DNA of 64,000 nt from an uncultured archaeon. Its GTDB lineage: Archaea; Asgardarchaeota; Lokiarchaeia; Sigyniarchaeales; SOKP01. Of the stretch, positions 1,967-33,876 are shown one piece after another; within the stretch, counting starts at the first letter, position 1, and each line of letters begins with the position of its first letter. The translations under genes and the position numbers were made by a program. The stretch spans positions 64,001-128,000 of the forward strand of contig CAZALK010000010.1 in assembly GCA_964486045.1 (NCBI GenBank). The letters are read 5' to 3'. A model generated the notes under the pieces. The model did not search any database and was not told the origin of the DNA. It was given only the letters and a program-made list of their open reading frames with translations.

Positions 1967-2926
1967 TTAAAAAAGATTTGAAATTAAATATGAAAACACC
2001 TCATCAATTCCTTCTCCTGTGAGTGCTGATGTTTCAAAAAAAGGGAAATCATATTCCTCTGCTAAATCTTGAGCTCTGGATCTAATTTCTTCCCGATCCA
2101 CTGCTATATCGATCTTATTTCCAACGAGAACAATTGGAATTGATTTATCTTTAATGAATTGATGAGTTTCTTTAATCCAATCAATTATATTATTAAAGGT
2201 CTCTATTCTAGAATAATCGAATAAAATTAGAACCGCATTTGAATAGTTATAATAATATTTTCTAACTTTAGCAAAGCTTTTTATTCCTCCTAGATCGAGG
2301 AGATATAATAATAGATTATAATTCTTTGAAATTTGTAATTTTTTTTCTATTATTGAAATTCCGATTGTAGGTTTGTAAGCTTCATTGTAAGTTCCCATAC
2401 AATACATTCGTACTAAAGCACTTTTCCCTGCTGATTCAGGTCCCACAACAACAATTTTATTTTGATTATTTTTAGTATACAGTGTCCTATTTTTAGGTTT
2501 AAATATTAATTGCATATTTTCGTTTAATTTTGGAATTTTTGATATAGACTCTTGATTATTTAGAATCAGTGATATTTTTTCTGCTGTTAAATAGGCATAT
2601 GGAATAATTTGATCAATATTTGAATAAGGATCTCCTATTAATACAAAAATTGCGGGAGTTACTTTTTTTAACTCCACAAAAAATAGTTGAAATTCATTGG
2701 TACTGAATGTTCCACATCCAAATGAAGTTTCAGCATATTGTCTAATTCTATTTATTGTTTGATCCAAAATTGACATAATAGCTCCTATCATTTCCTCATC
2801 AAATCCTCTGATTGACTGTTTAGCAATAATTAACCCATCTAAATCTAAAATAATGGTTGCTAATAATCCTTGTGTTTCATAAATTAAATCTGAAAGTATA
2901 TCTTCTAGTACTCCTAATTTTGACAT
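1967..2926 (-). CDS. Roadblock/LAMTOR domain fused to a Rab-like small GTPase
   Basis: N-terminal roadblock pattern (GLLATIILDLDGLIIA...EEMIGAIMS); G1 GPESAGKS, G2 YKPTIG, G3 DLGG, G4 NKID, G5 ETSAL; no C-terminal Cys. Confidence 0.9.
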   Translation of the reverse strand: MSKLGVLEDILSDLIYETQGLLATIILDLDGLIIAKQSIRGFDEEMIGAIMSILDQTINRIRQYAETSFGCGTFSTNEFQLFFVELKKVTPAIFVLIGDPYSNIDQIIPYAYLTAEKISLILNNQESISKIPKLNENMQLIFKPKNRTLYTKNNQNKIVVVGPESAGKSALVRMYCMGTYNEAYKPTIGISIIEKKLQISKNYNLLLYLLDLGGIKSFAKVRKYYYNYSNAVLILFDYSRIETFNNIIDWIKETHQFIKDKSIPIVLVGNKIDIAVDREEIRSRAQDLAEEYDFPFFETSALTGEGIDEVFSYLISNLF

Positions 2927-2932
2927 TAGTTT

Positions 2933-3598
2933 CTATAGATCCATATTATATTTGATGTTTAAAATTTTGAATAAATTCTTTAAAATATTCAGACTAGGAA
3001 TGAAGCACATTACACAATCTATTTTTATCTCTTTCAGTGCCAAGTTCGTTTTGATTAAAACCAAATAATCTGATATTTGAGAATATTTTGCAATAATTCT
3101 ATTTAGCATTGCATTTAATGTGTCAAGTGCTACTGTAGGAACATTAGGGACTAATTTAATTGACATTAAATCAGCTAAACCATTTGCATAATGCCCAGAT
3201 AATATGTTACCTATTTCAGTTATGATGCTTAACGAAAGCTCGTCAAGATCCTCACTAGTTCTTACGTTTTCAACAGAAAGATTAGAATCTTCATTCAGAT
3301 AATTAACTAAATTAAAGATTGATTCTTTTGTAAATATTTGAATAATTGATAAATCTGATGTAAGGTGGATTTCAGAATAGATCCCAAATACCTCAACTTT
3401 TGGGCTTTCAAATAATTCTTCTACCTTCCAGAAGGGAATAATATCAGCTGAAGTTAGTGAAACCTCTATTTCATAATTAAATAATTTTGAAAAAGCTGTA
3501 ATTGCATGCCCAGACCCGATGTTTCCAATTTCCTTTAACATGTCTAATTGTTCTGGAGTTAGGTGGAATTCTTCTGGTATCTTAAAATCGTTATTCAT
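2933..3598 (-). CDS. cheC: Chemotaxis phosphatase CheC
   Basis: Two D/S-x3-E-x2-N motifs (DMLKEIGN, SIITEIGN). Confidence 0.92.
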   Translation of the reverse strand: MNNDFKIPEEFHLTPEQLDMLKEIGNIGSGHAITAFSKLFNYEIEVSLTSADIIPFWKVEELFESPKVEVFGIYSEIHLTSDLSIIQIFTKESIFNLVNYLNEDSNLSVENVRTSEDLDELSLSIITEIGNILSGHYANGLADLMSIKLVPNVPTVALDTLNAMLNRIIAKYSQISDYLVLIKTNLALKEIKIDCVMCFIPSLNILKNLFKILNIKYNMDL

Positions 3599-5326: not shown

Positions 5327-6358
5327 TTAATTGACCTTCATATATATTCGATTTAATGAGTCTACTAACTTTAAATTACTCTGGGAGCTAAAAATTGTTT
5401 CTGTTTTACCTATGATTAATAAGCCCCCTGCATTTAAACGATTTTCAATGATTTTTAAGAACTTATTTCTTGCAACTCTATTAATGTATATTAGGAGATA
5501 TCGACAAAAAATGATATCATAAACCTGTGATGTTTGATGGCCTTTCATTACATCTTCCCCAATAAACTTGATATACTTTTTTATTTTTTCATTTATAGTG
5601 TATGTAAATCCGAATCCCACTTTTTTCTTCAAAAAGTAATTTTTTTCAAAATACTTTGAAACATTTTTTGTTGATTCTTCGTTATACACTCCGATATTTG
5701 CTCTTTTAATAGCGTTTTCATCAATATCAGAAGCTATAATTCTGAATTTAGGAAATTGTGGAATTTGTTTTTTAAAATTATCTAAAATTATTGCAATAGA
5801 ATATGGTTCTTCACCGTTTGCACATGGACAAGACCAAATATTAATAGTCTCCTTAAATCTTTGGAAATTCTTCAGCTTTTTATATAAAATACTTTTTGGA
5901 ACGATTTTCTTTGCTGATAATTTATTTTTTAACCTGTGTTCTAAGTCCTTCTTTCTATTGGAAATCTTTTCAATTTTATTTGGTTTCTTTTCACTTTTTT
6001 TACGATATTTTCTTTCTGGATTGGGATGTAAATTACTAATTACATCTTCTCTTTTGTAATTTCCACTTTTTAATATAATGTCTTCCAATTGGTCATAAAC
6101 TTCCCAATTTCTAAAAAAAGTAGAATAATTGATATTAAAACTAATTAAAAATTTATTTATTTCTTTAGGATTTTCTACTAAATATTTGTAATACGATTCA
6201 AAGTTAGAACAATTAACACGAATCATTCGAGATTTAATTCTTTTCTCGATATGTTTTCTTTGATAATATCCTAGTTTTAACCCAGTTGTTTTATTCAAAA
6301 ATCGAATTAATAAATCATAAAAATCCTCATCAAATTTAATATCCTCAATTAGTATCAC
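5327..6358 (-). CDS. cheR: Chemotaxis methyltransferase CheR with a lysine-rich insertion
   Basis: INYSTFFRN, IWSCPCANGEEPYS, IIASDID, DIIFCRYLLIY, GGLLIIGKTE. Confidence 0.93.
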   Translation of the reverse strand: MILIEDIKFDEDFYDLLIRFLNKTTGLKLGYYQRKHIEKRIKSRMIRVNCSNFESYYKYLVENPKEINKFLISFNINYSTFFRNWEVYDQLEDIILKSGNYKREDVISNLHPNPERKYRKKSEKKPNKIEKISNRKKDLEHRLKNKLSAKKIVPKSILYKKLKNFQRFKETINIWSCPCANGEEPYSIAIILDNFKKQIPQFPKFRIIASDIDENAIKRANIGVYNEESTKNVSKYFEKNYFLKKKVGFGFTYTINEKIKKYIKFIGEDVMKGHQTSQVYDIIFCRYLLIYINRVARNKFLKIIENRLNAGGLLIIGKTETIFSSQSNLKLVDSLNRIYMKVN

Positions 6359-27047: not shown

Positions 27048-28022
27048 GTGAAAATGAGCAATAAAGAAGAGTTAGAAGAATATGAGATTTTTGGAATAAA
27101 ACAAAAAGTTAGATTATATAAAATCAAAAACTTCATCTTTGATTTTGGAGGTGTATTAATTGAGAAAACCTTTGTGCTTAAAAATTTACTTGACATGCTT
27201 GAAGCGGATTTGAATATTACCATTCCTCGATTTGAAAATCCATATATCAGGAAATTGAAACGTAAATTAAGTTCTGGAAGAATTTCCTCCCGGATATTTT
27301 TAGAAAGGATTTTTAACAGATTTTATTATCCATTTCAGAAAAAGAATGGAACTCTACCTTCAAAAAAAGTGAATGTGGATTATTACTTAGAATTATGGTT
27401 TGATTTATACTCTCAAGTCACTCATGTGTCTGGAGAAATGGCAGAAATCATTGAGCGTTTACATCAAGCCGGATATATAGTAAGCTTAATGTCAAACACT
27501 CATGAAATCCATGTTAGATCAAATAATTTAAGAGGCTTTTATGATTCCTTTGATAATACTTTTCTATCAAATGAAATTGGGCTTATCAAGCCTGATATGG
27601 AGAAATATAAATATGTGATAAATAAATTAGGCACAAAACCAAAAAATTGTATCTTTATTGACGATAAAATTCAAAATTTAGTCCCAGCTAGAGAATTAGG
27701 GATTATAGTTATCAGATTTGAATCATTTGAAGATTTTAAAGTGAAATTAAATGAATTGGGAATAGGAGAAATCAGTAAGGATTTAAGAAATAAAATAAGA
27801 AAAAAATATAAGAAGTACAAAAAGACAAAAAAAAGGTATAATATAGCAAAGAAAGAATATAAAGAAGCAAAAAAAGAATACCTAAAAAAGAAAAGGAATT
27901 CTCTGAAAAGAAAATTAGAATTCCAACAAAAAAGAGCTGAATATAATAAAAGAAAAACTGAATACAAGAAAGAAAAGAAAAAGAAAAAACAAGACCTCAT
28001 TTCAAAAATAAAGATAACTTAA
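27048..28022 (+). CDS. HAD-superfamily phosphatase with a lysine-rich C-terminal extension
   Basis: FDFGGVL, MSNT, KP, FIDD motifs; ~75-residue K/R/Y-rich tail. Confidence 0.88.
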   Translation: MKMSNKEELEEYEIFGIKQKVRLYKIKNFIFDFGGVLIEKTFVLKNLLDMLEADLNITIPRFENPYIRKLKRKLSSGRISSRIFLERIFNRFYYPFQKKNGTLPSKKVNVDYYLELWFDLYSQVTHVSGEMAEIIERLHQAGYIVSLMSNTHEIHVRSNNLRGFYDSFDNTFLSNEIGLIKPDMEKYKYVINKLGTKPKNCIFIDDKIQNLVPARELGIIVIRFESFEDFKVKLNELGIGEISKDLRNKIRKKYKKYKKTKKRYNIAKKEYKEAKKEYLKKKRNSLKRKLEFQQKRAEYNKRKTEYKKEKKKKKQDLISKIKIT

Positions 28023-28045
28023 CGATTACATATTATATTACTAAA

Positions 28046-29161
28046 TTATGTATTTTCTTCATTCTCTTCTTTTTCTTTATTAAATTCTTCAACTTTTTGC
28101 ATTATTGATTCTGATGGTGTTGTTGGTATAGGTATTTTTTCATAAACTTCAATAAATTTTACATCCTCAATTTCTTCTGCCATATGTGTTTGTAAGTCCA
28201 TGGCAAGCCCGAATTTAACATATGTTAAATTTTGGAAAAGAAGCATCTTTGGAATTATAATTTCAAGTGTTTTATCATCCTTGATGTAATTAACTTTAAA
28301 TTCAGATATATTCTCATTAGGAATTCCTTTATTTATCATAAAATACTCTATTTTTGCATTGAAATCTTCTATTTTGTCTATGATTTCTAAATTATAATCA
28401 AGATTTTGTCCTGCTAAAGGGTGATTGTAATCGATAATAACTCTTCCTTGAACAACATTAGTTATTACACCTCTTTGTCCTTTTTTATTTAAGAACTCAC
28501 GGCCTAATTCGGGATTCTTACCTTCACTTACCTTTCGAAATTTAGCAATACCCATTCTTTCTATTTTCTGGGGATCTCTTTTCCCATATGCTTTAGAAGT
28601 GGGAATTCTAACCGATTTTTTCTCAAAGTAGTTCATTTCTTTAATTATTTCTGTAAGACCTTCATTCAAAAATCCAGGCTTTCCTACAATAACAAATTCA
28701 GGAGTATAAAAACCTTTTTCAGCCTTCTTTTCATCATATGTTCCTGCTTTTTTAGCATCTTCTTCACTAGAAACTCTAAATATAATACCTTTTTGGGTGC
28801 GTCCAGTTAATTTAACTAATATAAAATCTCCTTCTTCAACTTTTTTTCCTTGTAATTTTGATTTTTTTTGTTCTAATCTTTTTAATTCTTCTTGTATCTT
28901 TTCCACTTCTTTCTCTTCTATAGATGCTTCTTCAACAGCGTTAGTAGGACTTGTTTTAGGAGTTTCTTTCAAAATTACTTTAGCATTTTCTATAATTTTT
29001 GAAGCAGTTGCTTTTCCAATTCCCTTAAGTGCAGTTAAATCGTCAGTTTTTGCATTAGCTAATTTTTCAACTGTATCAATACCGGCTTGCTTTAAAGTAT
29101 CCTCTTTTTTGCCAACGCCTTTTACATCACTTAAACTAAAACTCATAATTAACCCATTCAA
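28046..29161 (-). CDS. Long-type archaeal FKBP peptidyl-prolyl isomerase with an N-terminal helix-hairpin-helix domain
   Basis: EGDFILVKLTGR, AYGKRDP, IDYNHPLAGQNL; N-terminal VKGVG...LKGIGKATA. Confidence 0.88.
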   Translation of the reverse strand: MNGLIMSFSLSDVKGVGKKEDTLKQAGIDTVEKLANAKTDDLTALKGIGKATASKIIENAKVILKETPKTSPTNAVEEASIEEKEVEKIQEELKRLEQKKSKLQGKKVEEGDFILVKLTGRTQKGIIFRVSSEEDAKKAGTYDEKKAEKGFYTPEFVIVGKPGFLNEGLTEIIKEMNYFEKKSVRIPTSKAYGKRDPQKIERMGIAKFRKVSEGKNPELGREFLNKKGQRGVITNVVQGRVIIDYNHPLAGQNLDYNLEIIDKIEDFNAKIEYFMINKGIPNENISEFKVNYIKDDKTLEIIIPKMLLFQNLTYVKFGLAMDLQTHMAEEIEDVKFIEVYEKIPIPTTPSESIMQKVEEFNKEKEENEENT

Positions 29162-29243
29162 TTAAAATATAATAAATATAGAATAAAGAGTTAGGTTTTC
29201 AAATATATGATTACTTTTAGATTTTTCTAATTTTTGAATATCA

Positions 29244-29366
29244 TTATGAGACTGGTTTATATAGTATTCCTAAACCAGATGCATAATTTTTTACTTCTTG
29301 CATTTCTTGAGATGTCGGTCTTCGATTTATTTCTGGATAATCAAAACTATGATACTGAGGTCTATA
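29244..29366 (-). pseudogene. Displaced allelic 3' end (40 codons plus stop) of the radical SAM gene 32007..33119
   Basis: YRPQYHSFDYPEINRRPTSQEMQEVKNYASGLGILYKPVS* vs YRPQWKSFEYPEINRRPTSQEMQEVRGYTDKLGILWKPVS*, 31/40 identical. Confidence 0.9.
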
Positions 29367-29390
29367 TTTTTTATTATTAACCAATGAAAA

Positions 29391-30563
29391 TTAAGTCCAG
29401 AACTCTCTTTTTCTTGGCAAACTTTTATCATAAATATTTATCATCTCTCTCATTAAGTCTGCTCCTAAACTGATTTGATCTCCTTTAACAGTATATTTTT
29501 TTTTAACTGGATCGTATTGGATGGAACCGGAATTAGAGACTGGTATGTTTAAGAATGGGGAATTTAAAATATCAGCAAGAAACTTGTTACTACCAGAAGT
29601 TATTCTTGATCTCCCCATTGTCCCATCCCCATCATAATAACCAAGTAGAAACGCTAACAATAGCTTCCGATGTTTAAAATGTGGTAGTCGTATATTTTTT
29701 GATTTCTTTTTTCCTACTATAAATCCATGAGAAATAAGATAGTTACAAAATTGAGTGTTAATTAATCTAATTCTTCGAAATACATGTATCTCACCTTCAG
29801 AAGTGATATATTTTTCAATACCGGGTTCATTGTTTATAATATCTAACCCAATAGAATCGGAAAACCTCTGCAGTAGAATGAAATCATCTTCTAGACACCC
29901 TACACCTAACCTATAATATGGTTCTCCTGCCTTATTTATACTATGTAATCTAATATATGCCTCAGCAAACAACCAACCTAACCAATATGCTTTTTCATTT
30001 GTATCAATTTTTTTAAAATAATCAAGTTTTAGATTAGGGTGCTGCTCTAATATACCATTTGAACCACGAGCATATAGCTTAAGTTTATTATAATTTTTAT
30101 AATTTTTAATGATAGTTCTAATATTATTCTTTACTGAATCAATCTTATCTATTAATTTTGAATCCGATTCTTTTAATATCCAATAATTAAAAGATTTTAT
30201 AAGGATATTTTCAATTTTCGTTAATAAATTTAAGCCTAATTGCTTTCCTTTTTGACTTTTTTGACATTTGTATCTAATATAATAAGGTTTTAAACCAAGC
30301 AACAGACTAAAGAATGCTGTATTTTCATTTGCTTTTCTGATACAAAAACAAGGATTTGGAATGAAAAATATTTGTTTTTTAATTGCTTTGAAAAGAGCAG
30401 TAGCATCAACAATTTTTTGTTCTTCTTCATCATTAGTAATAGTGATTCCAAAATCATCTTCAAAATTATTTATTCCACATTCTGGATTTATATTATAATC
30501 TTTACCTTTAAGCCTTACATCCTGCCTACAACTTAAGTCGTCTTTATTGTTTTTTTCGCTCAT
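29391..30563 (-). CDS. Free-standing two-motif LAGLIDADG endonuclease-like protein
   Basis: AYWLGWLFAEAYI and LAFLLGYYDGDGT motifs; ~180 aa N-terminal extension. Confidence 0.85.
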   Translation of the reverse strand: MSEKNNKDDLSCRQDVRLKGKDYNINPECGINNFEDDFGITITNDEEEQKIVDATALFKAIKKQIFFIPNPCFCIRKANENTAFFSLLLGLKPYYIRYKCQKSQKGKQLGLNLLTKIENILIKSFNYWILKESDSKLIDKIDSVKNNIRTIIKNYKNYNKLKLYARGSNGILEQHPNLKLDYFKKIDTNEKAYWLGWLFAEAYIRLHSINKAGEPYYRLGVGCLEDDFILLQRFSDSIGLDIINNEPGIEKYITSEGEIHVFRRIRLINTQFCNYLISHGFIVGKKKSKNIRLPHFKHRKLLLAFLLGYYDGDGTMGRSRITSGSNKFLADILNSPFLNIPVSNSGSIQYDPVKKKYTVKGDQISLGADLMREMINIYDKSLPRKREFWT

Positions 30564-30855
30564 AATATATCAGTCTCAATCAAGTGAATTTTACTGCTTC
30601 CTACCATGCCGTTTATTCATCAATTACAATTTTTTTTTTTATAATCGGCATTATTCAATATTTTTTATAAATTTTCTATAAAAATACAAATATTTTCATT
30701 CTGTTCAACTATATAAAAATTTATGCTTATAAATTTTACGGAATATTTATAAAGGAAGAATTTATAAGAGGATTTCAATAGTATATATAAAGGCAAAATC
30801 GTTAGGTTGAAAAAGGCAAAAATTTATAAACATAGATACTTATTTAACACCTTAC

Positions 30856-30930
30856 ACTACTATTAACTATTCTGAATGAATACCTAATACTACTATTAAC
30901 ATTTTTGGATGAATACCTGATATTACTATA
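30856..30930 (+). repeat. 33-bp tandem repeat, two full copies plus a partial third
   Basis: actactattaactattctgaatgaatacctaat / actactattaacatttttggatgaatacctgat (28/33), then attactata. Confidence 0.75.
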
Positions 30931-31261
30931 ATGTTTTATGACTCCGGTTTAGATTTGGTAAGTTAACTTATTCTTTTTGTTTAATCTTTATAAAAATCTC
31001 TCATTCAGAATTGAAGACTTTTGATGATGTCAATTTTTTTCCTTTAGTTTATGATTTTTATCACATTATATGATATGGGTTTTAAAAATGAAGAAAAAGA
31101 CTCAGTGTTTCATAGGTTTTAAATCATATAAAATATTCAAGAAAGATAAATTAGGAATCTAAGCAGAAAGTTGCTTATTCAATAAAAAAAACCCTTTCTA
31201 CAGGTAGCTCAAAATCATTAAAACTTATATTAAAGACACTTGGATGGTGTTATAATTAATT

Positions 31262-31942
31262 ATGAGTAATATTAATATTATTTTGAAGAGATGTAATGAA
31301 GTTATTAATCAAGCAGAAGATGTTATAAAAAAGAATGAGCCTAGGCGTGTAATATACATTATTACCTCAATACAAAATATACTTAATACAGTATATTCAG
31401 GTGAAGTTCCTGATTATTTGAATTATGAATATTTTATTGAACATGTTTTTCCAAAAATTTCAAGTCAGCCTGAATATATTTCAAAATATAAAAAAATAGA
31501 TAAACTTGTTGTTTACTTGGAAACATTTAAAGCCTTTAGAGATGACTTAGATAGTGGTTTAATTTCACACCTTTCTAATATTATATCTGTGGATATTTTT
31601 AGTAGTTTGATTGATCAAGCAACTCAACTTCGAGAAAATAATACTGAACCATTGAATCGAGCTGCATGTGTACTAACCAGAATAGTGTTGGAAGATACAT
31701 TATTAAGATTAAGTAGAAATAATAACCTCACACTTTCTAATGAAAAAGCCTCTATAGCTAATGACGAATTGAGGAAGAAAAACATCTATGGCCAGGCAAA
31801 GTGGAGAGAGATCCAATCATGGTTAGATATTGGAAATAAAGCTGCTCACCCTGATCCAGAGTTTATGACAATTAGCGAAATAGATATAGATAATATGATA
31901 AATAATGTGAGGAGATTTACTGAATTATATCTCCAGAATTAA
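31262..31942 (+). CDS. DUF4145/HEPN-like protein
   Basis: AACVLTRIVLEDTL...WLDIGNKAAH. Confidence 0.7.
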   Translation: MSNINIILKRCNEVINQAEDVIKKNEPRRVIYIITSIQNILNTVYSGEVPDYLNYEYFIEHVFPKISSQPEYISKYKKIDKLVVYLETFKAFRDDLDSGLISHLSNIISVDIFSSLIDQATQLRENNTEPLNRAACVLTRIVLEDTLLRLSRNNNLTLSNEKASIANDELRKKNIYGQAKWREIQSWLDIGNKAAHPDPEFMTISEIDIDNMINNVRRFTELYLQN

Positions 31943-32006
31943 TTTAAGAAAAACAATGAGATGATAATCTGTTATACTAATAAGGAAAACTCAATAATTT
32001 TCAAAA

Positions 32007-33119
32007 TTAAGAAACCGGTTTCCAGAGAATTCCTAATTTATCCGTATAACCTCTGACTTCTTGCATTTCTTGTGAAGTAGGTCGACGGTTTATCTCAGGA
32101 TATTCAAATGATTTCCACTGTGGACGATATTGAGACATTATGTTTACGACAGCCTTCGATAACTCTTTAGCTACATAATCCAAAATCGGTTTAGAGCAAC
32201 ATTCTATATGTTTGGGCATAACAAGATGACGGATGATAATTTCACCACTACCCTCATCATGCACCCGTTTATGATTTCTAGCAATGACATCGAAGTAGTT
32301 ATCAATACCAGAATATTTTTTGGCACATTGATTATTACCATACTTCCAATCTGGCAACCAAAAATCCATCAAATCAATAATGAGAGATAAAGCTTTATCA
32401 GTCAAATAAAAATTGGAGTTCCAAAGTTGTGTGATATTTGACTTCTGATAAAGTAAGTTTCCAATTATTGTATGAATATTTGGAATTGGGTCTCCTCCCA
32501 CATAATTAATATTTATTGCTCCTTTTTTGGCTAAATTATCTGCTATTACTGCTAATTGTTTGCTATCCACTTTTTGGGCTATGTCATCAATTTCCTTTTT
32601 ATTTTTCCATGCTTGTGAAATATCGTAATTTTGGCAGAAAACACACCCAAAATTGCAACCTTGAAAAAAAATTGTCCCACTGGGAATAAGGGGTGTTTCT
32701 TCTCCCATATGTAGAAATGCTGAAGAAATATATGAATCTTTACTTATTAAACAAAATCCTACTTGTCCATCAATCCTATTCGTTTCACATCGACGCTCAC
32801 AGTATATACAACTTTCAAGATATTTAATGGCTAGAGTTTCGATTAAATGGATATATGACCTAGGAGAAATTTTACGAGATTTAATTTCTTCGATGTTCTT
32901 TTTTAATAAATCATTAAACTCCCGTGATTTTTTTTTTAGTGTTATTTCAAGATTCTCAATCGAATCACTTGATTCATAATCACAATCAATAGTTTTAGCG
33001 ATTAAAAACCTTGCGATTTGTGAGCCATCAATAATCCCTCGATATCTTGAAAAGCGTTTAAGGATATCCTCATTTTGCCATACCGAATCAGAATCTGGTC
33101 TAATGATTCTAAAAACCAT
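32007..33119 (-). CDS. Radical SAM protein, PflX-like (pyruvate formate-lyase activating enzyme family)
   Basis: CIYCERRC, HMGEE, GCNFGCVFCQNYDIS, RHLVMP, NIMSQYRP. Confidence 0.9.
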   Translation of the reverse strand: MVFRIIRPDSDSVWQNEDILKRFSRYRGIIDGSQIARFLIAKTIDCDYESSDSIENLEITLKKKSREFNDLLKKNIEEIKSRKISPRSYIHLIETLAIKYLESCIYCERRCETNRIDGQVGFCLISKDSYISSAFLHMGEETPLIPSGTIFFQGCNFGCVFCQNYDISQAWKNKKEIDDIAQKVDSKQLAVIADNLAKKGAININYVGGDPIPNIHTIIGNLLYQKSNITQLWNSNFYLTDKALSLIIDLMDFWLPDWKYGNNQCAKKYSGIDNYFDVIARNHKRVHDEGSGEIIIRHLVMPKHIECCSKPILDYVAKELSKAVVNIMSQYRPQWKSFEYPEINRRPTSQEMQEVRGYTDKLGILWKPVS

Positions 33120-33144
33120 AATATGGGAAAAAAATCTTTGTTAA

Positions 33145-33876
33145 CTATCTTTCAAAAGATAACCATTCAATAATATTTGACAAAAATTTTAAATTGTCAC
33201 CAGAATCAAGTCCAAAATCACTGTCTTCCGTTATCCAATCAGATGAACCAATTGATACACATCTACCTTCATAAAAACGGGAAACCGCACAAATCGGGAC
33301 TGGCCCAATTGCTCCTAATTCTTCATCGATGTAATATTTAAATTCTGATTTTTGAGAAGTCACAATTATATCATCTACATCTTCCTCAGAAATTGTAAGG
33401 AAAGTACTGTTTGGGAATACTAACTCGGTAATCCCCTCAGTAATAGGATGATTGAACATTTCAGTAATTAAGACATTGTTTTTTTTAACTAAAAAATTAG
33501 ATGAAGATTCTTGTATCAAACCATTCCAAAATCTCCGAACACCTGTAACCTTATATAAGACCCTAATAGATCCTTTTTTCATGGATATATCTCTATCCCC
33601 TCCATCTCCACTAGTTAAAAAAATACTACTCCCCTCTCCTACAAATTTTTTAATTGCTCTCAATTCATCATGGGTGAATTTATCATCCTTTCCGTTAATA
33701 GTATGTTGAATATTTCCTATGAATAATATGTCAAAATCTTCAAGTTTTTCGAACTCAATTGGACCTTCATTTTTATCAATATATTCTATTTCATAACCGT
33801 CATCTCCTAAGGAAAATTCGGGGAATTCTTCAATTTTCTCCTTATGAGATAAATCTACTATTATATGGGATGACAT
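33145..33876 (-). CDS. GIFT-domain protein (IFT52 N-terminal/GldG-like)
   Basis: KFTHDELRAIKKFVGEGSSIFLTSGDGG, HPITEGI, GRCVSIGSS...DNLKFLSNIIEWL. Confidence 0.65.
   Translation of the reverse strand: MSSHIIVDLSHKEKIEEFPEFSLGDDGYEIEYIDKNEGPIEFEKLEDFDILFIGNIQHTINGKDDKFTHDELRAIKKFVGEGSSIFLTSGDGGDRDISMKKGSIRVLYKVTGVRRFWNGLIQESSSNFLVKKNNVLITEMFNHPITEGITELVFPNSTFLTISEEDVDDIIVTSQKSEFKYYIDEELGAIGPVPICAVSRFYEGRCVSIGSSDWITEDSDFGLDSGDNLKFLSNIIEWLSFER

Follow-up and report, generated by a model that had tools for sequence, protein, structure and literature searches.

A probable 3'-end-replacing homing element with a free-standing LAGLIDADG gene behind a radical SAM gene of a Lokiarchaeon

Homing endonuclease genes that carry a replacement for the end of a conserved gene have been described from yeast nuclei and from fungal mitochondria. 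At FBA1 of Torulaspora and Lachancea, as outlined in the accounts of the WHO elements, each integration swaps the 3' end of the gene for a resistant copy and pushes the old 3' end downstream, where it persists as a fragment and acts as a homology arm, and old elements decay (PMC7282813; 10.64898/2026.08.13.744650). As formulated in the first of these accounts, the WHO model predicts discordant trees for the 5' and 3' parts of the gene together with 3' fragments downstream of it (PMC7282813), and cleavage by WHO6 is described as demonstrated (PMC7282813; 10.64898/2026.08.13.744650). In fungal mitochondria, the elements known as mORFs have carried a C-terminus into Allomyces macrogynus atp6, into Glomus atp6, atp9, cox2 and nad3, into Rhizopus atp9 and into Mortierella cox2, and the native, displaced C-terminus is there 91-98% identical to that of a close relative, against 64-81% for the inserted one (PMC3630166). 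Homing without introns is also familiar from the T-even phages, where the free-standing genes of SegF, SegG and MobE lie between conserved genes, cut an endonuclease-less genome nearby and co-inherit flanking markers (PMC2790892). Here we describe a locus of an uncultured Lokiarchaeon that resembles these systems in several respects. It occupies positions 29244-32129, with flanks, of a 64,000-nucleotide stretch of contig CAZALK010000010.1 (hereafter the window), which is contig 10 of the 45 that make up a genome of 5.18 Mb (G000); homologues of its genes bear names of the Promethearchaeota (Loki lineage) in public records. In this region a free-standing LAGLIDADG gene and a passenger gene separate a radical S-adenosylmethionine (SAM) gene from an FKBP gene, and sequence comparison leads us to regard the whole, with good though not complete confidence, as a 3'-end-replacing homing element.

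Codons 331-370, the last 40 of the radical SAM gene (32010..32129), recur on the same, reverse strand at 29247..29366, followed by a stop codon (29244..29246). The two tails agree in 31 of 40 residues and in 83 of 120 bases (69%), and their 37 base differences are distributed 8, 7 and 22 over codon positions 1, 2 and 3. Seventeen codons differ synonymously and nine non-synonymously, giving a Nei-Gojobori ratio of non-synonymous to synonymous divergence (dN/dS) of about 0.10 with dS saturated. A repeat search recovers the pair as 29243-29368 and 32006-32131, direct repeats in the same orientation with 71% identity and a spacing of 2763, and the longest exact run common to both tails measures 17-18 bases. 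Since the downstream copy is open over all 40 codons and identical in 36 of 40 residues to the functional tail of a relative (G049:C30), it is not a product of chance. A first-pass annotation of this DNA had already reported a displaced tail with many third-position changes, and its description of the surroundings is accurate too: the displaced tail starts exactly 24 bases past the stop of the LAGLIDADG open reading frame (ORF; 29391..30563) and lies just upstream of the FKBP gene, its own stop being 82 bases from the listed TTG start (29161) or about 100 bases from the ATG that agrees with the orthologues. The island between the working tail and the displaced one amounts to about 2.6 kb.

Comparison with related genomes indicates which of these two ends is the original. 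The gene was found in 47 of 53 congeners, and 46 further radical SAM loci from these were compared with that of the window, making 47 loci. The site is empty in 28 of them, with FKBP following about 85-100 bases behind the gene, and an insertion precedes FKBP in the remaining 19; most congeners examined thus have the gene order expected if FKBP was the original neighbour, as had been suggested. In a tree of the gene body, the window gene is sister to G049:C30 and G062 (Shimodaira-Hasegawa-like approximate likelihood-ratio test, SH-aLRT, 95), both with the site empty. At the base level the displaced tail agrees with the functional tail of G049:C30 to 88%, and the 97-base stretch that leads from its stop into the start of FKBP (29147..29243) matches the spacer behind the intact G049:C30 gene at 89 of 97 positions. 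The working tail shares 93% of its bases with the tail of the distant congener G022, to which the gene body is only 63-79% identical. Identity of the gene to G049:C30, followed in a sliding window, falls from 85-88% to 58-65% near base 960 of 1110, and the resulting figures are of the mORF type: 88% identity to the close relative for the native tail against 58-65% for the imported one. Moreover, in a tree of the last 40 codons the displaced tail groups with its body sisters (L060/L065), and a constraint joining the working tail to its body sisters is rejected (approximately unbiased, AU, test, p 0.02). On the strength of the identities to G049:C30 and G022, the matching spacer and the breakpoint, the downstream copy is evidently the native end of the gene and the present working tail a foreign one, in agreement with the first-pass claim that the C-terminus had been swapped. 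A contig of a relative, from an unrelated metagenome, runs up to window position 32136 and continues, after 4 bases, from 29368, collinear with an island-free gene; the reconstructed empty allele therefore exists in nature. The G049 assembly itself holds two complete radical SAM-FKBP loci (G049:C30 and G049:C9) with different tails, and probably represents two strains binned together.

The imported tail is of a type that is met repeatedly among the congeners. Sixteen genes and one orphan fragment form a 17-row clade in the tail tree (SH-aLRT 93), characterised by tails that end in L-W-[KR]-P-V-S (W-type tails), and all 16 genes have an insertion before FKBP. On the body tree the same genes, a group defined by the tail tree and not by the body tree, are dispersed across both main clades, several of them as sisters of empty-site genomes (sister pairs that differ in state are L009/L069, L010/L062 and L059/L068), and a tree constrained to unite them is worse by 678 log-likelihood units (AU p 7e-61). 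No position before codon 331 distinguishes W-type from empty alleles; the discriminating positions are densest in the last seven codons (364-370), with several synonymous differences among them, and Arg345 is encoded by CGN in the former class and by AGA in the latter. What stands behind a W-type tail varies among the insertion loci of the 47 and includes genes for GNAT, sugar kinase, peptidase, DUF423-like and beta-propeller proteins. Nine congeners (L004, L005, L007, L009, L029, L062, L063, L070 and L071), all with W-type tails, have between radical SAM and FKBP an opposite-strand gene for a GNAT-like acetyltransferase, a label given by eye from its sequence.

The endonuclease is tied to the locus by its nearest relatives. 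Genomic context is readable for three close homologues, those of L090 (metagenome contig SDBV01035394.1), G068 and Loki_b31 (NJBI01000011.1), and each of the three occupies the interval that separates this radical SAM gene from FKBP, accompanied in two cases by a displaced tail from the same codon as in the window; the link between endonuclease and tail-swapped locus drawn in the first-pass annotation has thus gained support from three other genomes. In L090 the endonuclease shows 96% identity and is joined to a displaced tail at the same right junction, and homology to window 30921..29124 extends over 1.8 kb at 92.8%, from 360 bases upstream of the endonuclease (a part that is 89% identical) to the start of FKBP. 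G068 has a 574-residue homologue (69%) on the opposite strand, 20 bases behind the radical SAM gene, and a CDC48_N-like gene as well. The 423-residue homologue of Loki_b31 (68%) is convergent with the radical SAM gene and overlaps its last 30 bases; beyond it come a displaced tail of 40 codons and then FKBP, and the island there consists of the imported tail and the endonuclease only. Displaced tails also occur without an endonuclease, in G041 (after a 344-base spacer), in G022, in G001 (behind a GNAT pseudogene) and in G063 (behind a beta-propeller gene). Those of G022, G001 and G063 are degraded and that of G041 groups with its F-type kin; a displaced tail survives at seven loci in total, and at four of them (the window, L090, Loki_b31 and G041) it starts precisely on the boundary between codons 330 and 331. 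Tree conflict together with 3' fragments is what the WHO model predicts, and the Lokiarchaeal element fits that model. Among the 47 loci compared, an endonuclease was found only in the window and in G068, L090 and Loki_b31 having come from other searches. Past its own stop, the endonuclease frame of the window runs on in frame into the displaced tail; we take this as chance, the frame being different in L090. One contig from the likely source sample (X1; depth 14.6 against about 270, 11% divergent), seems to join window 29025-29407 to 30975, skipping the endonuclease, with 30 bases on the far side; it was not used.

The protein itself belongs to a large and mainly Asgard family. A word-indexed search returned about 240 homologues at E-values up to 0.001 and an exhaustive search 2175 representatives, mostly from Asgard archaea and many with the Pfam family PF14528, whose cut-off is exceeded by the G068 homologue (23.9 bits). 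The catalytic acids, Glu201 of motif 1 (WLFAEAY) and Asp313 of motif 2 (LGYYDGDG), are invariant across 15 close homologues. An AlphaFold model (mean predicted local distance difference test score, pLDDT, 72.5) consists of a helical N-terminal domain, which has an invariant P-x-x-C-x-C block, ahead of a LAGLIDADG core, and all PDB matches that Foldseek lists for it are LAGLIDADG proteins (I-SceI, I-DmoI, I-Tsp061I, I-AniI and the bI3 maturase); the best match has a probability of 1.0, although template modelling (TM) scores reach only 0.4-0.5 per target. By family membership, catalytic acids and predicted fold, then, the window protein is a member of the LAGLIDADG family and a predicted nuclease. 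It is the sole member of its family in G000, and dN/dS of 0.16 at a dS of 0.145 against the 96%-identical L090 copy indicates purifying selection. A sequence search of the PDB with the endonuclease gave no match, a Pfam search for Hint or intein domains none even at E-values up to 10, and the model shows no splicing domain; PADLOC matched neither the endonuclease nor the passenger protein.

These features can be accommodated in a model whose unit would comprise the free-standing LAGLIDADG gene, a private copy of codons 331-370, and the old tail downstream as right homology arm. The endonuclease would cut element-free radical SAM alleles somewhere in their last 40 codons. Repair on an element-bearing chromosome would follow, the left end pairing with the gene body and the recipient's own tail with the donor's displaced tail. 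In this way, the recipient would acquire the imported tail, any cargo and the endonuclease, while its own tail would persist before FKBP as a dead fragment, and the hybrid gene would remain intact and presumably resistant to recutting. Cleavage, the position of the cut, the resistance of the imported tail and the passage of DNA between cells are all parts of this scheme that we infer from sequence. The model would account for the junction being the same everywhere, since it is inherited with the element, and for each displaced tail resembling the tails of its host's relatives (that of the window those of G049 and G062, that of G041 those of its F-type kin), since the recipient's own tail is retained. 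If the cut site lies near codons 330 and 331 (NIMSQ/YRP), resistance would come from the bases to its right. Alternatively, the target may be the recoded 3' terminus, that is the last seven codons, beside which the endonuclease genes of G068 and Loki_b31 sit.

Several observations weigh against a homing element. The sequence at the 330/331 junction is itself identical in W-type and empty alleles, so that the junction cannot be the seat of resistance. The tail tree is built from 120 bases, and the support of the W-type clade (SH-aLRT 93) is below the 95% confidence mark of the tree tool. The window protein's own score against PF14528 (15.8 bits) is below the cut-off of 22.5, and the protein is devoid of the N- and C-terminal extensions, including a helix-turn-helix, of the G068 and Loki_b31 homologues. 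No displaced tail is detectable at G068. Most W-type loci carry a GNAT, sugar kinase or peptidase gene, with no remnant of an endonuclease found at E-values up to 0.1; we read these as old elements that have lost the endonuclease. Finally, in the window as in L090 the endonuclease, there without the C-terminal helix-turn-helix extension, reads in the same direction as the radical SAM gene and adjoins the displaced tail, but in G068 and Loki_b31 it is convergent with that gene and adjoins the imported tail, so that an inversion or rearrangement, or else a separate origin, must be assumed.

Some of these points would find a natural place if the gap between radical SAM and FKBP were a recombination hotspot, in which ordinary homologous recombination passes islands with linked W-type tails from relative to relative, the LAGLIDADG gene being a mere, or decayed, passenger without a driving role in the swap. 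Insertions occupy 19 of the 47 loci with the varied cargo listed above, the endonuclease accompanies only two of them and has left no remnant in the others, and W-type tails travel with all cargos. Recombination through two flanks, however, would substitute one tail for another without duplication, yet displaced tails persist at seven loci, with a common starting codon in four of them. The Loki_b31 island with its endonuclease alone, the occurrence of all three context-known close homologues at this one locus and the purifying selection on the endonuclease likewise speak against mere passage, and we consider a hotspot of this kind unlikely.

A homing element also has to be set against integration by a site-specific recombinase. 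Many prophages and integrative plasmids supply replacement gene ends at insertion, and an element whose attachment (att) site overlaps the radical SAM 3' end would explain a precise and recurrent insertion position with a duplicated gene end, for which the 17-18-base exact run between the tails might be adduced. But no integrase, transposase or recombinase was found in the islands of the window, G068, Loki_b31 or G063 or in the readable part of L090, and the repeats are diverged coding tails of 120 bases (69% identical) as opposed to the short exact att cores of integrase islands; a scan of 28000..33500 against Rfam gave no RNA family match and nothing tRNA-like. This origin therefore seems very improbable to us. 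Still less can be said for a tail that was duplicated in place, with copies that diverged and genes inserted between them later. The copies are indeed direct repeats in one orientation, but near-identical counterparts of the working tail occur in distant congeners and those of the displaced tail in the nearest relatives, synonymous divergence between the two is saturated, and each has a much closer partner elsewhere, which leaves this account almost no credibility. Integrase insertion and in-place duplication were both rejected, given the tail phylogeny and the lack of a recombinase and of exact att repeats. The coordinates of a homing element as we would delimit it are collected in Table 1.

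Table 1. Features of the locus and its flanks in the window (contig CAZALK010000010.1)
Feature	Position	Strand	Remarks
Radical SAM gene, 370 codons	32007..33119	-	PF04055; distant likeness to glycyl-radical activases (activase/PflX-like) and to the AmmeMemoRadiSam enzyme
Codons 1-330 of the radical SAM gene, its native body	32130..33119	-	PF04055; sister to G049:C30 and G062 in the body tree
Imported W-type tail, codons 331-370 and stop; present working 3' end	32007..32129	-	Conversion may extend upstream to ~32160
DUF4145-like passenger gene of 226 aa; convergent with radical SAM	31262..31942	+	Weak Pfam match
AT-rich spacer of ~700 bases without long ORFs	30564..31261	.	Right part (30564..30921) belongs to the endonuclease module common to L090
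Exact inverted 14-mer matching part of the imported tail (coding D-K-L-G-I)	31145..31158	+	100 bases upstream of the DUF4145-like gene; blastn-short E 3.5e-4
Free-standing double-motif LAGLIDADG gene (predicted endonuclease), 390 aa, short form	29391..30563	-	Family, catalytic residues, predicted fold
24-base linker from endonuclease stop to displaced tail; right junction of the element	29367..29390	-	Same junction in L090
Displaced native tail, codons 331-370 and stop, outside any long ORF	29244..29366	-	36/40 residues match the working tail of G049:C30
Native intergenic spacer with a conserved motif upstream of FKBP	29162..29243	-	82 bases; spacer similarity to G049:C30
FKBP26-like peptidyl-prolyl isomerase gene with N-terminal HhH domain; original downstream neighbour	28046..29161	-	Pfam and synteny

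When the element is placed among the described systems, the WHO elements and the mORFs prove to be equally near. The likening of this locus to Allomyces atp6 in the first-pass annotation was apt, and the nuclear WHO elements of yeasts are published analogues just as close. With these the Lokiarchaeal element shares a free-standing endonuclease gene behind a conserved chromosomal gene, a cleavage module of LAGLIDADG type and a conflict between 5' and 3' trees. WHO proteins, as characterised in the published accounts, are derived from inteins, with a Hint domain and a C-terminal zinc finger, parts that the Lokiarchaeal protein does not have; furthermore, its host is an archaeon without meiosis, the islands hold unrelated cargo, and cleavage, shown for WHO6, is predicted for the Lokiarchaeal protein. 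By this comparison the element is WHO-like in its apparent mechanism and not a member of the WHO family by descent. The mORFs, for their part, combine a LAGLIDADG or GIY-YIG ORF with a foreign C-terminus in the gene's 3' part and a native end displaced downstream, as here, but they are organellar, free of cargo and often continuous with the reading frame of their host, whereas the present element lies in an archaeal chromosome and has a separate endonuclease gene in either orientation within islands of 2.6 to more than 4 kb that include passengers. The T-even phages offer a parallel in the intronless homing of a free-standing endonuclease gene between conserved genes; their elements differ in having no duplicate of the target-gene end and no displaced fragment, and their enzymes are of the GIY-YIG and HNH types.

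The LAGLIDADG enzymes of archaeal introns and inteins ride in self-splicing elements that restore the host product. Those of the rRNA introns and inteins (I-DmoI, I-Tsp061I and PI-PfuI type) have the same fold in a monomeric, double-motif form, and are among the structural matches of our model, but the Lokiarchaeal element has no splicing element and relies on a spare tail to preserve its host gene entire. The literature searched, with most subscription journals outside its range, held no report of such an element from an archaeon, Asgard or other, or from a prokaryotic chromosome. What appears new, then, is the occurrence in the archaeal domain and in a chromosome, the separate endonuclease gene in either orientation and the turnover of cargo; 3'-end-replacing homing as such is known from yeasts and fungal mitochondria.

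The cargo of the window's element is a single gene, that of the DUF4145-like protein. Assignment to DUF4145 (PF13643), a HEPN-related family, is weak for the window protein alone (20.6 bits against a cut-off of 23.1, E 4.8e-4); it has a small family of relatives, of which 15 of 16 give weak DUF4145 matches at E-values up to 0.01 (best 8.9e-6). The conserved block of the family, G-N-K-A-A-H-P, has an invariant glycine where the arginine of the HEPN Rx4-6H motif would be expected (register set by eye), and a profile search of the PDB with the family gave matches at chance level only. The gene is absent from the otherwise homologous island of L090, whose cargo is a Ser/Thr kinase and three small proteins; passengers thus differ between the two, which implies cargo turnover inside the element. 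The L090 kinase (L090:1264-2511, reverse strand, 415 residues) matches PD-T4-6 and mad6 of PADLOC at E about 1e-40. A role of the DUF4145-like passenger as toxin or in defence would have its support in family resemblance and in this defence-type kinase, and in nothing beyond these.

Fragments of radical SAM tails are also found away from the gene. In the same genome, an orphan copy of the imported tail (G000:C13:20290-20447, or L027:8291-8448, reverse strand) matches window 31997..32159 (reverse strand), covering codons ~318-370 and 11 further bases, with 156 of 163 bases identical and a 1-base deletion that shifts the frame. About 22 bases past the stop are held in common with the arrangement in G022. 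The copy is flanked on one side by a truncated SLFN/AlbA_2-STAND NTPase ORF and on the other by a Cys-rich ORF of 146 residues, in a region rich in defence-like genes. Contig depth, in what is likely the source sample, is about equal for the window locus and the orphan locus, which indicates that both belong to the same organism, and the copy is possibly an ectopic insertion of an element fragment. Within the window's own island, a search for further tail copies yielded only the 14-base inverted match of Table 1, which may be a relic of another copy in opposite orientation or a matter of chance. In another genome, L087 (G044:C6) has at 5415-5549 a radical SAM tail that stands apart from the gene as an orphan and is closest to that genome's own working tail. 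Two kilobases away, at 2791-3303, lies a domain of an 865-residue acidic repeat protein that is 41% identical to the N-terminal extension of the long-form G068 endonuclease.

Arrangements of this kind are not confined to one target gene. The flanks of about 60 other loci of the endonuclease family were tested for same-strand similarity, the names of flanking genes being read by eye from motifs, and duplicated C-termini were found beside paralogues at L034 and L103 (SNF2-type helicase), L093 and L094 (phosphohexomutase-like) and L046 (dehydrogenase-like), with acyl-CoA-synthetase-like C-termini in stacks of 2-4 at L097, L098, L100 and L101. L125 is likewise among the paralogue loci with duplicated gene ends, and a methyltransferase at L113 is the sole case in which an N-terminus is duplicated. 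A check of whether other LAGLIDADG genes of Lokiarchaea adjoin displaced tails had been proposed at the outset, and several Asgard paralogues are in fact flanked by duplicated ends of other genes. Free-standing LAGLIDADG genes of Asgard archaea could accordingly form a widespread class of chromosomal homing elements, free of introns and inteins, which persist by exchanging the termini of conserved genes and meanwhile pick up cargo, defence-type genes among it, and carry it from one species to another, building variable islets behind housekeeping genes, as an archaeal counterpart of WHO and HO; we put this forward tentatively, as a generalisation about which we are nearly evenly divided and lean slightly towards doubt.

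Should the mechanism hold, it would account for the mosaic evolution of the 3' ends of some conserved Asgard genes, at odds with the remainder of each gene, for the origin of small variable islets with defence-like cargo and their movement from species to species in the absence of integrases and transposases, and for the abundance of orphan gene-end fragments in these genomes. Single-gene phylogenies of Asgard archaea could be misled by such mosaics. The family would also represent a set of predicted natural meganucleases, and a comparison of occupied with empty alleles can narrow the presumed target, at this locus, to the last 40 codons.

The product of the FKBP gene matches FKBP_C above its cut-off and also HHH_5, and FKBP26_C and FKBP26_IF slightly below theirs. 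Upstream of the radical SAM gene, in a synteny kept genus-wide, a gene of 243 residues (33145-33876, reverse strand) scores 26.0 bits against the 27.2 required for the IFT52 GIFT domain. On the other side, beyond FKBP, a forward-strand gene (27048-28022) encodes a HAD-family hydrolase with a lysine-rich, low-complexity C-terminal extension of about 90 residues that is present in Loki_b31 too.

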